Source of the DNA: a virus
Taxonomy: Duplodnaviria > Heunggongvirae > Uroviricota > Caudoviricetes
Reading direction: 5' to 3' (one strand)
Virus record (IMG/VR): IMGVR_UViG_2706794699_000009
DNA: 4,111 nt
The notes beneath the pieces are model-generated. The model was not told the origin of the DNA. It made no database searches and was given only the letters and a program-made list of their open reading frames with translations. A program made the translations under genes and the position numbers. Within the stretch, counting starts at the first letter, position 1; each line of letters opens with the position of its first letter. Of the stretch, positions 1 to 4,111 are shown piece by piece.

Positions 1-67
1 CAATCGTCAGCGTCGTCACTCTCGTCTGGGGAATATCTCCCCGGCAGCCTTCAGGGAAAAATATCAT
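1..67 (-). CDS. Possible 5' end of an unidentified ORF running off the left edge (ATG at 65-67), or the out-of-frame continuation of the 79-474 ORF
   Basis: Minus-strand frame is open from the ATG at 65-67 to the window edge (MIFFPEGCRGDIPQTRVTTLTI...). No obvious Shine-Dalgarno. The same frame would be reached from the 79-474 ORF if the A7 run at 81-87 had one more base. Too short to judge. Confidence 0.2.
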   Translation of the reverse strand, partial: MIFFPEGCRGDIPQTRVTTLTI

Positions 68-78
68 CAGATGGCTGC

Positions 79-432
79 TTAAAAAAAGAACAAATGGTAG
101 TGTCCGCTATTGCCAGTACACCTCAATTGCTCTGCGGCTTCGCTCAGAGCTGGCGTATGTTCCCGGCCTACTGATTCACACAGGTAATCAACGAAACCGG
201 ACACCAGTTTTCGTTCGCGAGGCGTGATCGCCCCACCGACCGGAGTCCAGTAATCGAAACCCAGTTGCAGGAGTTTGAAAAAACGCTTGTGGAATGCGTA
301 GTTACACACACGCTTAAAGTCTGCGTGTATCCACTCACCTATTTTGATTTGATGCAGAAAATCGCAACTCTCCGGCGTCGCCGGGAGAAGTAATCCGGAA
401 GAGGTTTGTTTGACCAGTTGTATATGTGCCAT
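79..432 (-). CDS. Hypothetical small phage protein (nin-region-like), family not recognised
   Basis: Minus-strand ORF with stop at 79-81. ATG at 430-432 is preceded by GGAG at about 7 nt spacing (CCGGAGAAAGCCGATG). The ORF track extends it to a TTG at 472-474 that overlaps the upstream stop (TTGA); I prefer the ATG. The ORF ends in a T7 homopolymer on the minus strand. Confidence 0.55.
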   Translation of the reverse strand: MAHIQLVKQTSSGLLLPATPESCDFLHQIKIGEWIHADFKRVCNYAFHKRFFKLLQLGFDYWTPVGGAITPRERKLVSGFVDYLCESVGREHTPALSEAAEQLRCTGNSGHYHLFFF

Positions 433-470: not shown

Positions 471-758
471 TCAATCCTGCTCAAGATTGTAGATGAGTTT
501 ATTCTTCAGCAAAAGCAGAAAACCAGCCTTAAAACCAATCTCTTTCAAAACCCGTAATGATGTGACAAATTCGTCCTCACGCAAAATAAAACCGTCCGTC
601 AGAAGTCCATTACAAAAATAAAATAACACAGCACCGCTCTTCCTTTGTTGAGATTGCAAACATCTAATGCGGCAATGGCTGACAATCGCTCCATTCTCAA
701 CGCGCACAGCATAGAGGCCATTTTCACTAAAAATTTCACGCAATTCTTCGATTTTCAT
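471..758 (-). CDS. Hypothetical small phage protein, 95 aa, family not recognised
   Basis: ATG at 756-758 preceded by GGAAGGA about 8 nt upstream. Lies downstream of a candidate promoter and immediately upstream of the 79-432 ORF, forming a two-gene cassette. Confidence 0.6.
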   Translation of the reverse strand: MKIEELREIFSENGLYAVRVENGAIVSHCRIRCLQSQQRKSGAVLFYFCNGLLTDGFILREDEFVTSLRVLKEIGFKAGFLLLLKNKLIYNLEQD

Positions 759-880: not shown

Positions 881-930
881 AAACAACAAAAAACCCGCCG
901 AAACGCTGAGAGATCACAGCGATGGGCGGG
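881..930 (-). terminator. Rho-independent terminator ending the queH-like transcript
   Basis: GC-rich bipartite hairpin: outer stem 894-899 with 925-930 (CCCGCC/GGCGGG), inner stem 904-908 with 917-921 (CGCTG/CAGCG), 8-nt loop. On the minus-strand RNA it is followed directly by UUUUUUGUUGUUU (plus 881-893). The plus-strand side has no U tract, so it is orientation-specific for minus. Confidence 0.7.
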
Positions 931-1032
931 TTAAGTGCGGGTGCGTTGAGGATGCCTGACACATCAGAGGTGGGCGGGGATGGGATCAGCTCCCCGCCCG
1001 GTCACTCTTACTTCCTGGATTCGTAGTCTACG

Positions 1033-1053
1033 NNNNNNNNNNNNNNNNNNNNN
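1033..1053. other. Run of 21 N (assembly gap or masked sequence) in the queH-like 3' region
   Basis: Literal n characters at 1033-1053. Confidence 0.95.
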
Positions 1054-1134
1054 TGAAGCAGATAGCCTCAAGCACCCGCAGTCATTCTACTTACCTCGCC
1101 AATATGAAATCAATCAGAAAGGTGCCCCATAAAA

Positions 1135-1821
1135 TCACTCCTTCTCTTCTTTACCGTAGTGGAGTTGACCAATTTTGATAAGAGGGCGTCCCTGAGATTT
1201 GCGGTGTAGATTGGTATCGCGCAGAGAATACACACAGCCACAATATTCCTGCTGATAGAATTTTTCGCGCTTGCTGATTTCAATCATACGGGACGAGCCG
1301 CCCTGCTTGCGCCAGTTATAATCCCAGTACACCATGCCCGGATAATGCGCGACGGCTCGCCGCCCACAGTCGTTAACCTGCTGCATATTTTTCCAGCGTG
1401 AAATGCCCAGTGAACTGCTGATCACACTGAAACCATTTTCAGCGGCGTACAGCGCTGTCCGCTCAAAACGCATGTCAAAACACATGGTGCAACGGATCCC
1501 TCGTTCGGGCTCCCATTCCATTCCTTTGGCTCGTTCAAACCAGTTGTCTGTGTCGTAATCAGCATCAATAAACGGCACGCCGTGTTGTTCAGCAAAGCGA
1601 ATATTCTCATCCTTACGAATTAAATACTCTTTCTGAGGATGAATGTTCGGGTTGTAGAAAAAGATGGTGTAGTCGATTCCCGAGGCCTGAAGCGCCTCCA
1701 TCACCTCACCGGAACATGGAGCACAGCAAGAGTGCAGTAGTAGTTTGTTTGCCCCGTTTGGGAGCTCCAATTTGGGCCGTTTGAAATCAGCAACTGTCAT
1801 AAATATGTTTATTGGGGTCAT
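1135..1821 (-). CDS. queH: QueH-like protein (DUF208 family, epoxyqueuosine reductase-like Fe-S enzyme)
   Basis: 228-aa ORF with the N-terminal [11 protein letters not shown] motif I recognise as the DUF208/QueH signature, plus further Cys at 111, 114 (CTMC), 152 and 194/196 (CGC). Start is ambiguous between the ATG at 1819-1821 and the ATG at 1798-1800; neither has a strong SD. Call rests on motif recollection, not a search. Confidence 0.65.
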
Positions 1822-1968
1822 AAAAATATCAAAGAGTGTAGCATTAGAACGGGGCTATCGGAAACAGATGTGTGACTGCTCCCCGCCCTTTCGGGTGGTC
1901 TCCTGATGATTTGAGGGTGCAGAAATCCCTCCGGTTAAGGATTAAATTTTTAACAGTGCTAAATTTAA

Positions 1969-2382
1969 TTATTCAGTTCTGGATTTTGTCGCCCTGCGTA
2001 TCCGCGCTTTCGCGTTACGCTCAATCTGTATCAGCTTTTCTATATTTCTCCGCCTTTCCTGTTCCTCCTGGCGCAATAGCCTTACATCATCTGCCAGTCT
2101 GGTTTCTCTTTTTGCCACAGAGAGCATCCAGTCAAACGGCTCCACAACCGCACCGCAGATTTTACAGCGGACCTGACGCTCTTTTTCGTCAACCCGTACA
2201 GAGGCGTGATGGCAATATGGTCTTTCCGATGGCTCATAAAGAAAATTAACCTGATTACGAGGGTCATCCTCTTTTACCGGAAATAAAACGATATTGCTTA
2301 ACTCATCTTCTGGTTTTATTTCCATGCTCCTCTCCTTTGATGCGAATGCCAGCGGTAATTGAAGCCTGATAGCTAATTTCAT
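1969..2382 (-). CDS. Small hypothetical phage protein with a Cys/His cluster and a basic, coiled-coil-like C-terminus
   Basis: ORF with stop at 1969-1971. Two candidate starts: the ATG at 2380-2382 directly abutting the upstream TGA (TGAATG), or the internal ATG at 2323-2325 preceded by AAGGAGAGGAG (118-aa product). Contains C38-H39-H40 and C54-x-x-C57 (numbered from the internal start) and an R/E/K-rich tail. Confidence 0.6.
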   Translation of the reverse strand: MKLAIRLQLPLAFASKERSMEIKPEDELSNIVLFPVKEDDPRNQVNFLYEPSERPYCHHASVRVDEKERQVRCKICGAVVEPFDWMLSVAKRETRLADDVRLLRQEEQERRRNIEKLIQIERNAKARIRRATKSRTE

Positions 2383-2805
2383 TCACAGTATCGCCTCCTG
2401 AAAATTACCCTGATAGAAAGCCAGTACACGCTGCATAGCTTCGCTCTTCCGGCACTCGCGACAGATTATATTCAGGCGCCTGTCGTAGCGGCGTATTTCT
2501 CCGTCAGGTAATGACCAGATAAGGTCCGGATCAACAACAACCGGTTTCCTCACCTTTACTCTCGAGAGTTTTTTGCGGGCGCTTTGCCAGTCCTTGCGAG
2601 CCTGTTCAGACGGGAATAAGCCGTAGCCAGAATTATATACATCACCACTTGCGACCAGTTCTATGCATAAGCGACCGACAGACGCACGACTGATACCTGT
2701 TTCATCTGACAACTGCCGAATCGTGACCCGACCGTCCTGATGCACGAGTTCCACAATTCGCGTCTTCAGTTCTTCCCGCTGTTCGGGAGTAAAAGGTTTC
2801 GCCAT
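2383..2805 (-). CDS. ren: Ren-like protein (lambda ren family C-terminal motif) with an N-terminal DeoR-type winged-helix-like region
   Basis: ATG at 2803-2805 preceded by AGGAGGA. C-terminal CRECRKSEAMQRVLAFY closely resembles the lambda Ren C-terminus as I recall it (KECRQSAAMKRVLAVY). Position directly after the replication genes matches lambda O-P-ren order. Functional call from recollection. Confidence 0.6.
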   Translation of the reverse strand: MAKPFTPEQREELKTRIVELVHQDGRVTIRQLSDETGISRASVGRLCIELVASGDVYNSGYGLFPSEQARKDWQSARKKLSRVKVRKPVVVDPDLIWSLPDGEIRRYDRRLNIICRECRKSEAMQRVLAFYQGNFQEAIL

Positions 2806-2819
2806 AAATCCTCCTGAAA

Positions 2820-3323
2820 CTACTTAACAACCCTCGAATGGCTAACATTCGGACGCCAGCTCTCCCAGTTAAAATTCACCCAGCGCCCGCCGTTCATGAN
2901 NNNNNNNNNNNNNNNNNNNNNNNNNNNNNNNNNNNNNNNNNNNNNNNNNNNNNNNNNNNNGATAGCTGCCGCTAAGTGATTCTTCCCGGTACCAGGTTTT
3001 CCGCTGAACGCAAAATTTGTACACCCGGTCATCAGTTCATCGGCGATGGATTTCGCCTGGCTTAACGCGTATCGCTGGCCGTCGTTCTGCACCTGGTAAT
3101 TCGCAAACGAGCATTTACGGTGCAACGGCTGGATGCCTGAGCGATTCAGAATTTTTTCCACCCGCAACTGGCGATTCAGGCGGTTGATCTCCTCGCTACG
3201 TTTCTGGCCTTCAGCAAGTTGCCACTCGCGCCACTCCGCTACCGTTCTGAATGGGGCGGTTACATGTGGCGGGGTCAGTCGGCGGATGCGTTCCAGAACG
3301 CCGCCTGTCGCAATATTTTTCAT
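2820..3323 (-). CDS. dnaC: DnaC-like helicase loader (AAA+ ATPase), coding sequence interrupted by an N run
   Basis: ATG at 3321-3323. N-terminal 121 aa align with E. coli DnaC as recalled, including Walker A FSGKPGTGKNHLAAAI. After the N run the frame resumes with WVNFNWESWR, matching the DnaC C-terminus (WVIFNWDSYR). About 100 residues between these are absent. Confidence 0.85.
   Translation of the reverse strand: MKNIATGGVLERIRRLTPPHVTAPFRTVAEWREWQLAEGQKRSEEINRLNRQLRVEKILNRSGIQPLHRKCSFANYQVQNDGQRYALSQAKSIADELMTGCTNFAFSGKPGTGKNHLAAAIXXXXXXXXXXXXXXXXXXXXXMNGGRWVNFNWESWRPNVSHSRVVK
2900..2960. other. Run of 61 N inside the dnaC-like gene (gap, not length-preserving)
   Basis: Literal n characters at 2900-2960. 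Flanking translations correspond to DnaC residues roughly 118 and 223, so about 300 bp of real sequence is represented by 61 N. Confidence 0.9.
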
Positions 3324-3329
3324 GGTCCG

Positions 3330-4032
3330 TTACCCCCTGAAGCCTGGCGGGATCGCACTGTCCGGCAACGAGACGGTGTTAACCTGTCGGAGCAACGTCT
3401 CAGGCCGAACACCTTTCGGCGCGAACAGGCCCTGGTATTCATTGGCGATGCTGTGTCGAATCACCTGCTCAGGTGTAAAACCCTGCTGACGGAATTTTTC
3501 CAGTTCCCGTATCGCCCCGTTAGCGCCCTGCTCCGTTCGAATCGGTTTTCGCAATGCCTGTCTGAACCGGACCCACTCATGCCAGAGTGTTTCCGGCAAC
3601 CAATCGGGCAGCTCAATAGCCTCCGGCTCGAATTTTTTAGACGCTCGTTTTTGGCGAGGGGGAGATCAGTATTTAGATCTTCCTCTTCCTCTTCCTCTGG
3701 TAACGCTTTTTGATCCGTTTGTGTAACGCTGGCAGCGTTACCTTTTCGTTTCAGTTCGCGTATTTTTGTTACTCGCTCGTTTGTAACCGCCCGTTTTTTT
3801 TAGAGCTTTTTCCGTTATGACGTTCAAAGTTAGGTAGAGAAAGCCCTCCGTCATTTTCGACCAGCCATCCAACCTGAATTAACGCATCAGCAAAACCAGA
3901 CATAAAAGTGATGCGATCTATTGCACTTTTTGTAACGCCGCGAGCGTTACAATCTGCATTACCGTCTATCATTTGTTGATCCGCCCATGCCCAGAAGCGA
4001 ATAACCTGAGGTAGCCTGAGTTTAACGGACAC
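3330..4032 (-). pseudogene. Phage replication protein with a DnaT-like C-terminal domain, broken by two single-base frame breaks; 5' end lies in or against the IS end
   Basis: Three minus-strand segments in different frames: 4032->3769 (N-terminal 87 aa, GTG start), about 3801->3662 (KKRAVTNERV...PEEEEEEDLNTDLP) and 3665->3330 (SPPRQKRASKKFEPEAIELPDWLPETLWHEW...VNTVSLPDSAIPPGFRG). The last segment matches the E. coli DnaT C-terminus as recalled (YPDWQPD...VNTVSEPDSQIPPGFRG). Frames join if the T8 run at 3794-3801 and the G5 run at 3658-3662 each gain one base. Stop at 3330-3332 lies 6 nt before the dnaC-like ATG. Confidence 0.65.
3679..3698. repeat. Hexanucleotide tandem repeat (TCCTCT)x3 encoding a poly-Glu stretch in the replication protein
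   Basis: Plus strand cttcctcttcctcttcctct; on the minus strand this is GAG GAA x3, giving EEEEEE in the middle frame segment. Confidence 0.8.
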
Positions 4033-4111
4033 TCCTTCCTGAAATAGAATGGCATCAGAAGGAGCTAATAATGAGCAGAAAAACCCAACGTTACTCTAAA
4101 GAGTTCAAAGC
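4007..4111 (+). mobile_element. Left end of an IS3-family insertion sequence (IS600-like), running off the right edge
   Basis: Plus-strand ORF starting at 4071 encodes MSRKTQRYSKEFKA, the typical N-terminus of IS3-family OrfA (HTH transposase subunit). Candidate left terminus TGAGG at 4007-4011, 64 bp upstream of the orfA ATG. The boundary is approximate. Confidence 0.5.
4071..4111 (+). CDS. IS3-family transposase OrfA, N-terminal 13 codons (partial)
   Basis: ATG at 4071-4073 preceded by AAGGAG at 4059-4064 (6-nt spacing). Translation MSRKTQRYSKEFK... continues off the window. Confidence 0.55.
   Translation, partial: MSRKTQRYSKEFK

Follow-up and report, generated by a model that had tools for sequence, protein, structure and literature searches.

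We report that an open reading frame on the minus strand of the window, i.e., the whole stretch of 4,111 nucleotides of viral DNA that was analyzed, is a genuine and intact gene for QueH, and that Rac-type lambdoid prophages carry this gene in a variable slot, as a cassette of approximately 0.75-0.8 kb. QueH, an iron-sulfur epoxyqueuosine reductase that needs no cobalamin, turns oQ34 into Q34 in tRNA-Asp, tRNA-Asn, tRNA-His, and tRNA-Tyr. Its substrate, oQ, is made on tRNA by QueA. Escherichia coli does not synthesize vitamin B12 de novo. The reading that we favor, and consider quite probable, is that the gene encodes a functional QueH that was captured once together with its putative promoter and is now carried as phage cargo, which would give lysogens a B12-independent route to Q.

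The identity of the protein is supported by its profile, its predicted fold and its metal-site residues. The earlier note on this DNA, made from the sequence alone, had described a reading frame of 228 codons at 1135-1821 and had assigned it to the QueH/DUF208 enzymes; the frame is as described, and the assignment is confirmed by the profile (E=1.9e-65), the fold (TM 0.85) and the Cys ligands, all of which agree. The match to Pfam family PF02677 (QueH/DUF208) scores 220.6 bits against a cutoff of 23.5 and spans profile positions 1-174 of 175, and phmmer aligns residues 27-203 with the solved QueH of T. maritima (7lc5; E=5e-22). Among NCBIfam models, none matched the product. An AlphaFold model built on 27 homologs (pLDDT 76.8, pTM 0.78) was compared with the PDB by Foldseek. 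The top five matches were all T. maritima QueH entries (TM 0.84-0.86, rmsd 2.3-3.7 A), followed by TtuA and LarE with TM values below 0.4; the predicted model has the adenine-nucleotide alpha-hydrolase-like core of the QueH fold. The findings that the note had listed as speaking against its assignment, i.e., a missing DUF208 match, a different fold or misaligned cysteines, were each looked for, and each check favored QueH.

The cysteines that the note had proposed to examine all align. In T. maritima they are C9, C10, C87, C90, C169 and C171, and in the alignment with the PDB sequences these correspond to C32, C33, C111, C114, C194 and C196 of the window protein (228-aa numbering). These six and Cys36, seven cysteines in all (Cys32/33/36/111/114/194/196), are invariant across 27 gammaproteobacterial homologs. 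The position of Cys36 is occupied in T. maritima QueH by Asp13. We sampled the family with 86 diverse representatives, down to approximately 37% identity, of which 75 align at this position; since 70 of these 75 have Cys there, the CCAPC motif of the window protein is, judged from the alignment, the mainstream of the family, and T. maritima is the exception. The assignment of residues to metals in T. maritima QueH reportedly goes back to Li et al. (2021), and the PDB holds C9S and D13N mutants of that protein, so its depositors had targeted these residues. The protein is probably a functional enzyme and would convert oQ to Q.

The longest form of the queH frame (1135..1821, minus strand) opens with an ATG at 1821. 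Translation more probably begins with the ATG at 1800, which gives a protein of 221 aa, because the RefSeq annotation of the gene (666 bp) begins at this codon, the N-termini of homologs align to Met8 of the 228-aa frame, and strain A10 has ATT in place of the ATG at 1821. Neither of the two candidate ATG codons (1800 and 1821) is preceded by a Shine-Dalgarno sequence. The features of the window are as follows.

1..126, plus strand: end of an IS600-family element, of which a second direct copy starts at 4006
127..432, minus strand: N-terminal part of a DUF1367 (NinB/Orf-like) gene, truncated by IS600
881..999, minus strand: two strong hairpins after hokD (973-999 and 892-932), the second with a U run, forming an intrinsic terminator
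1008..1113, minus strand: hokD type I toxin locus, located by alignment to FDAARGOS_944, where hokD is annotated, and by promoter scan
1097..1882, minus strand: queH cassette, delimited by blastn breakpoints between queH-bearing and queH-less phages
1135..1800, minus strand: queH coding sequence, epoxyqueuosine reductase QueH (PF02677), 221 aa from the ATG at 1800
1835..1843, minus strand: putative extended -10 element TGcTACACT, approximately 35 nt upstream of the ATG at 1800, proposed from its conservation
1969..2382, minus strand: zinc-ribbon ORF, phrog_1621 (unknown function), 118-137 aa, the immediate upstream neighbor of queH
2383..2805, minus strand: DUF977 wHTH protein, labelled 'Ren-like exclusion protein' in PHROGs (phrog_142), the upstream anchor of the slot
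2820..3323, minus strand: ydaV, DnaC-like helicase loader; an N run at 2900-2960 masks 304 bp of the gene
3330..4005, minus strand: ydaU-like replication initiator gene, inactivated by two extra A residues in a poly-A run, a 10-bp deletion and the IS600 insertion
4006..4111, plus strand: start of an IS600-family element, whose orfA begins at 4071

IMG/VR contig UViG_2671180821_000008 matches the window at 100% identity, and a prophage of E. coli FDAARGOS_944 matches it at 98.8-99.9%. The latter is a Rac-type lambdoid prophage of approximately 50 kb with the order int-xis ... cI/cro-ydaT-ydaU-ydaV-DUF977-(Zn-ribbon ORF)-queH-hokD-orf-DUF1367-DUF1364-DUF1133-tRNAs-lysis-structural genes. At its far end (locus L018, 8761-10587), a gene for an ipaH-family T3SS effector E3 ubiquitin ligase lies beside the tail-fibre genes, which points to a Shigella-type background for this record labelled E. 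coli. The note had placed the queH gene of the window in a prophage between ren and the nin-like genes. The prophage is lambdoid, of the Rac type, and the gene does lie between replication and nin-like genes, but the 'ren' gene is that for the DUF977 protein and is not adjacent, as the ORF at 1969-2382 intervenes. This ORF has a strong match to phrog_1621 and a weak one, below threshold, to PF08271; it adjoins queH in just 15 of 80 viral contigs. DUF977 flanks queH in 75 of the 80 and is the constant upstream anchor of the slot.

The coordinates downstream of queH have to be read with the two N runs of the window in mind. These runs (1033-1053 and 2900-2960) are shortened masks and not assembly gaps; true distances are therefore larger than window coordinates, and ORFs that cross the runs are artefacts. 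When the window is set against the otherwise identical FDAARGOS_944 locus, the run at 1033-1053 stands for 277 bp that include most of the hokD coding sequence. What is visible of hokD in the window is a promoter-like site (1113-1084) before the run and the last 25 nt of the coding sequence (1008-1032) after it. This changes the meaning of the strong terminator that the note had seen at 881-930 and had taken as the downstream boundary of queH. The hairpin with its U run (881-932) is real (z=-3.26; 0 of 200 shuffled sequences fold as well), but since the masked hokD lies between, it ends the hokD transcript and not the queH unit. A consensus terminator scan gave 0 sites in the window, the 881-932 terminator being missed on account of its long loop, and found no terminator between queH and the hokD promoter. 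Rfam, searched with the whole window at E<=1, returned nothing, hence no cobalamin or preQ1 riboswitch before queH; hok/sok went undetected because most of that locus is masked. Beyond the hokD terminator, before the NinB-like gene, there is a 95-aa ORF (471-758, minus strand) that belongs to phrog_340 (unknown function) and is hypothetical in RefSeq, and a promoter-like site lies near it at 867-840.

Comparison of related phages delimits the piece of DNA that moves with queH. E. coli 042 and phage HannyBb share with the window only 1054/1129-1871 around queH, and the cassette core common to both is 1129-1871. In the queH-less phage vB_EcoS-640R1, the shared stretches are 1883-2665 and 1059-1096, and three small ORFs occupy the slot between them. 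The blastn breakpoints thus obtained fall at approximately 1097/1129 and 1871/1882, and on these grounds we regard the gene as a cassette. This presence/absence polymorphism in a variable slot agrees with the note's view of the gene as prophage cargo. The hairpin-rich leader that the note had read at 1822-1968 did not hold up: folding gave z=-0.91, with 33 of 200 shuffles folding at least as well, and only some 50-80 bp of this region travels with queH. On the other side of the gene, the downstream neighbor is hokD in 65 of 80 viral contigs; elsewhere it is an NgoMIV-type R-M pair (O157:H7 Z1768) or DUF1971 (strain A10). This slot immediately after queH is a hotspot for cargo of the defence and addiction types. 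In O157:H7 Z1768, the place usually taken by hokD (locus L007, 1306-3316) is held by genes for an NgoMIV-family restriction endonuclease and a DNA cytosine methyltransferase.

The upstream part of the cassette, approximately 70 bp that move together with queH, contains a candidate promoter. The element TGcTACACT is kept in all eight prophage copies compared (8/8), including that of the divergent strain A10, even where the flanks have diverged. TGCTACA(C/A)T occurs at equal distance upstream of chromosomal queH in Scandinavium, Kluyvera, Enterobacter and Symbiopectobacterium, where the flanks are unrelated. A strict sigma-70 consensus scan gave no minus-strand promoter upstream of queH. Judged by its conservation, the element is a putative native queH promoter, captured with the gene.

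Chromosomal relatives of the gene point to where it came from. QueH is strongly conserved across Proteobacteria, and the closest copies outside prophages are those of Scandinavium (92% amino acid identity), Kluyvera (91%), Enterobacter (89-90%), Erwinia (86%) and Providencia (84%). Chromosomal queH at 79-92% identity is present in Enterobacter, Kluyvera, Scandinavium, Erwinia, Providencia, Proteus, Photorhabdus, Serratia and Pantoea, among others. The statement of the note that enterobacterial hosts use QueG therefore needs qualification: queG is universal in E. coli, but for enterobacteria at large the statement is too strong, as many Enterobacterales have a chromosomal queH. In the cases inspected, the surroundings of these chromosomal genes are ordinary. 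In an Erwinia-type genome the order is purL-queH-glrK-glrR-glnB-hmp-glyA (queH at 8001-8666, loci L015/L016), a core enterobacterial neighborhood; Providencia has tmcA/purC next to queH, and Scandinavium and Enterobacter have SDR/Hcp or DeoR/GH28/LysR. Among 80 genome loci, only that of E. albertii has phage neighbors at queH. Since the nearest homologs sit in such contexts, the prophage gene is, on sequence grounds, a housekeeping gene captured from an Enterobacteriaceae chromosome.

Sequence divergence within the prophage clade is consistent with a single capture followed by long diversification in the phage pool under strong purifying selection. The 87 prophage loci contain 20 distinct alleles, none of which has a stop codon. 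Between pairs of alleles, dS goes up to 0.475 and dN is at most 0.023, and the median dN/dS is 0.028 (maximum 0.075; 149 pairs). Between the prophage genes and the nearest chromosomal gene, dS is at least 0.89. The sequence of events that we propose starts with a single capture: a lambdoid phage lineage would have taken up queH from the chromosome of a member of the Enterobacteriaceae, in a cassette of approximately 0.75 kb that included its own putative extended -10 promoter. In E. coli, Shigella and E. albertii, the gene now travels as cargo of Rac-type prophages, inserted after replication/DUF977 and before hokD and the nin-like genes. In lysogens, QueH may then turn oQ into Q independently of B12 or B12 uptake, beside the QueG of the host.

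The gene is common. It is present in 995 of 5,426 complete E. coli genomes, and in 985 of them the match covers 80% or more of the query, at 90-100% identity; it also occurs in E. albertii and in at least 191 IMG/VR contigs. In a phage collection of 50,697 records, one isolated coliphage, the plaque-forming HannyBb, has queH, annotated as hypothetical. Matches to QueH outside E. coli in that collection (31-78% identity) were rejected as reliable cases of phage carriage; the records are unannotated faecal contigs, 280-380-kb entries named 'Acinetobacter phage' or 'Staphylococcus phage', and short entries named 'Listeria phage'. RefSeq annotates exactly this protein as QueH in approximately 1,000 genomes, with the name 'epoxyqueuosine reductase QueH' on all E. 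coli records listed. The prophage gene is thus a correctly annotated, widespread accessory gene of a kind already known, and its identity is database knowledge. In the PHROGs database the QueH family is phrog_3217, of 'unknown function'; PHROGs, and hence Pharokka-style phage annotation, misses what RefSeq names correctly. The E. coli prophage copy is undescribed in the available literature that combines QueH, DUF208 or epoxyqueuosine reductase with phage or prophage, and its association with prophages appears undiscussed there. Hutinet et al. (2019) found QueA, QueG and QueH absent from the viruses that they analyzed, including deazaguanine-modifying ones (PMC6884629).

Every complete E. coli genome (5,426/5,426) also has queG, and QueH is for this reason always a second route in this species. 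QueG and QueH carry out the same reaction (PMC9508795, PMC6461909); QueG requires cobalamin, and QueH is the cobamide-independent alternative (PMC6461909; PMC9508795). Approximately one in five sequenced E. coli (995/5,426, including ST131, APEC, O111 and Shigella-like strains) thus possesses two non-homologous enzymes for one tRNA-modification step, the second of them delivered by phages and evidently under strong purifying selection. It is because QueG needs B12, which E. coli cannot make, that we view the prophage enzyme as a probable B12-independent second route. The note's suggestion that a prophage-borne copy could complete queuosine formation under B12 limitation is accordingly plausible.

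The prophage of the window bears on when such a gene would be useful, as it is clearly defective. Two direct IS600-family copies of 1,266 bp, 99.8% identical (locus L101, 6952-8217 and 1308-2573), bracket a 4.4-kb prophage fragment. The copy in the ydaU-like gene is a simple insertion. The other copy links what is left of the NinB-like gene with the integrase gene, and the late genes are gone from this junction. A composite transposon made of the two copies was considered and rejected, one being a simple insertion and the other an IS-mediated rearrangement or deletion scar. Compared with its intact counterpart in FDAARGOS_944 (262 aa), the ydaU-like gene is broken into two ORFs: a poly-A run at about 3795-3802 has slipped by +2 A, and 10 bp are deleted at a TCCCCCT direct repeat near 3655. 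Although the ydaU-like gene is inactivated and the late region has been lost or moved, queH is intact, and its preservation where replication and lysis are impossible argues for a benefit in the lysogenic state.

This last observation weighs on the first of three other explanations, in which QueH is a helper of the lytic cycle, made mainly from the early-right (pR) transcript once the phage is induced or infects a cell, and of use to the phage by keeping the tRNAs that read NAU/NAC codons fully Q-modified during phage protein synthesis. The gene is co-oriented with the replication and nin-like genes and lies in sense orientation within the early-right operon, so that most of its expression could follow induction; between it and the genes upstream there is no terminator, and HannyBb, which has it, forms plaques. 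Set against this are the promoter-like element of the cassette, which is kept upstream of chromosomal copies as well, the intact gene in a prophage unable to replicate or lyse, and the turnover of tRNA modification, which would presumably be small within one lytic cycle. We therefore consider a mainly lytic role unlikely.

Less likely still is that queH is a neutral passenger, redundant with host QueG and spread by the phage alone with no benefit to the lysogen. The universal presence of queG in E. coli and the unrelated cargo that fills the same slot in other phages are what such a passenger would lead one to expect. We also know of no E. coli phenotype that separates oQ from Q, and for this reason a selective benefit of Q over oQ is hard to name. 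A gene under no constraint, however, does not fit a median dN/dS of 0.028 over dS values up to 0.475 in the prophage clade, the lack of stop codons in 20 alleles from 87 loci, full-length coverage in 985 of 995 genomes, or ligand residues that are all invariant. Given this signal of selection in the sequences, neutral hitch-hiking seems unlikely.

The remaining alternative, a part for queH in a phage 7-deazaguanine DNA-modification pathway, was also raised in the note and is very improbable: phages do use preQ0-pathway genes for DNA modification (PMC6884629), but neither the FDAARGOS_944 prophage of approximately 50 kb nor the HannyBb region has an annotated DpdA/Tgt-like gene or folE, queD, queE or queC, for which the note had suggested that the prophage be inspected, QueH acts on oQ, which QueA makes on tRNA, the deazaguanine-modifying viruses analyzed by Hutinet et al. 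had no QueA, QueG or QueH (PMC6884629), and a product 85-92% identical to housekeeping QueH gives no sign of a new function.

We return to QueH as a probable functional enzyme of lysogens. If it is active, queuosine status in the strains concerned would no longer be tied to B12 supply, which bears on work with queG mutants, on B12-limitation experiments and on tRNA-modification profiling in non-K-12 strains. A more far-reaching version, which we put forward only tentatively and regard as rather doubtful, is that prophage QueH uncouples Q maturation from both B12 and its uptake through BtuB, and is a true auxiliary gene of temperate coliphages. Full Q34 would then persist in lysogens under B12 scarcity in the gut, or once btuB has been lost in escape from BtuB-dependent phages and colicins, and the gene would be an exception to the 2019 survey that reported no viral QueA, QueG or QueH (PMC6884629). 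In a stronger form, the susceptibility to anticodon-targeting toxins or defences would depend on whether Q or oQ is present, and QueH would be the first Q-specific (post-Tgt) tRNA-modification enzyme documented to take part in phage-host conflict. As it stands, the biology is a modest extension of known themes, i.e., morons and auxiliary metabolic genes, and not a new kind of system.

Among solved proteins, the closest parallel is QueH of T. maritima (7lc5/7lc7; IPR003828), with which the window protein shares a full-length profile match, the fold (TM 0.85), the six cysteines, the NPN, RC..C and YCGC motifs, and a single domain of approximately 220 aa. The two differ in sequence (approximately 31% identity) and at Cys36, which is Asp13 in T. 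maritima, and the window copy is encoded by a prophage and not by a core chromosome. QueG of E. coli catalyzes the same reaction according to the literature, and both enzymes are encoded in every queH-carrying E. coli; QueG, however, is cobalamin- and [4Fe-4S]-dependent, has no homology to QueH and differs in its cofactor need, and its gene is core (5,426/5,426 genomes) whereas queH is accessory (995/5,426).

With the morons of the lambdoid nin region and other lysogenic-conversion cargo, queH has in common that a gene-sized segment is present or absent between conserved modules, that it may have its own promoter, and that other cargo, hokD or an R-M system, lies nearby. It differs from them in that no terminator belongs to it: directly downstream come the promoter and gene of hokD, and the next terminator follows hokD. 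The chromosomal queH genes of Enterobacterales encode a near-identical protein of equal length and N-terminus and have the same putative extended -10 element upstream, but they lie among housekeeping genes, whereas the window copy is flanked by phage DUF977 and hokD, and they are separated from the prophage clade by a synonymous divergence of at least 0.89. Finally, a parallel to the pairing of queG with a prophage queH in E. coli is found in S. aureus, for which coexisting QueG and QueH with cofactor-dependent expression have been proposed (PMC13443448).
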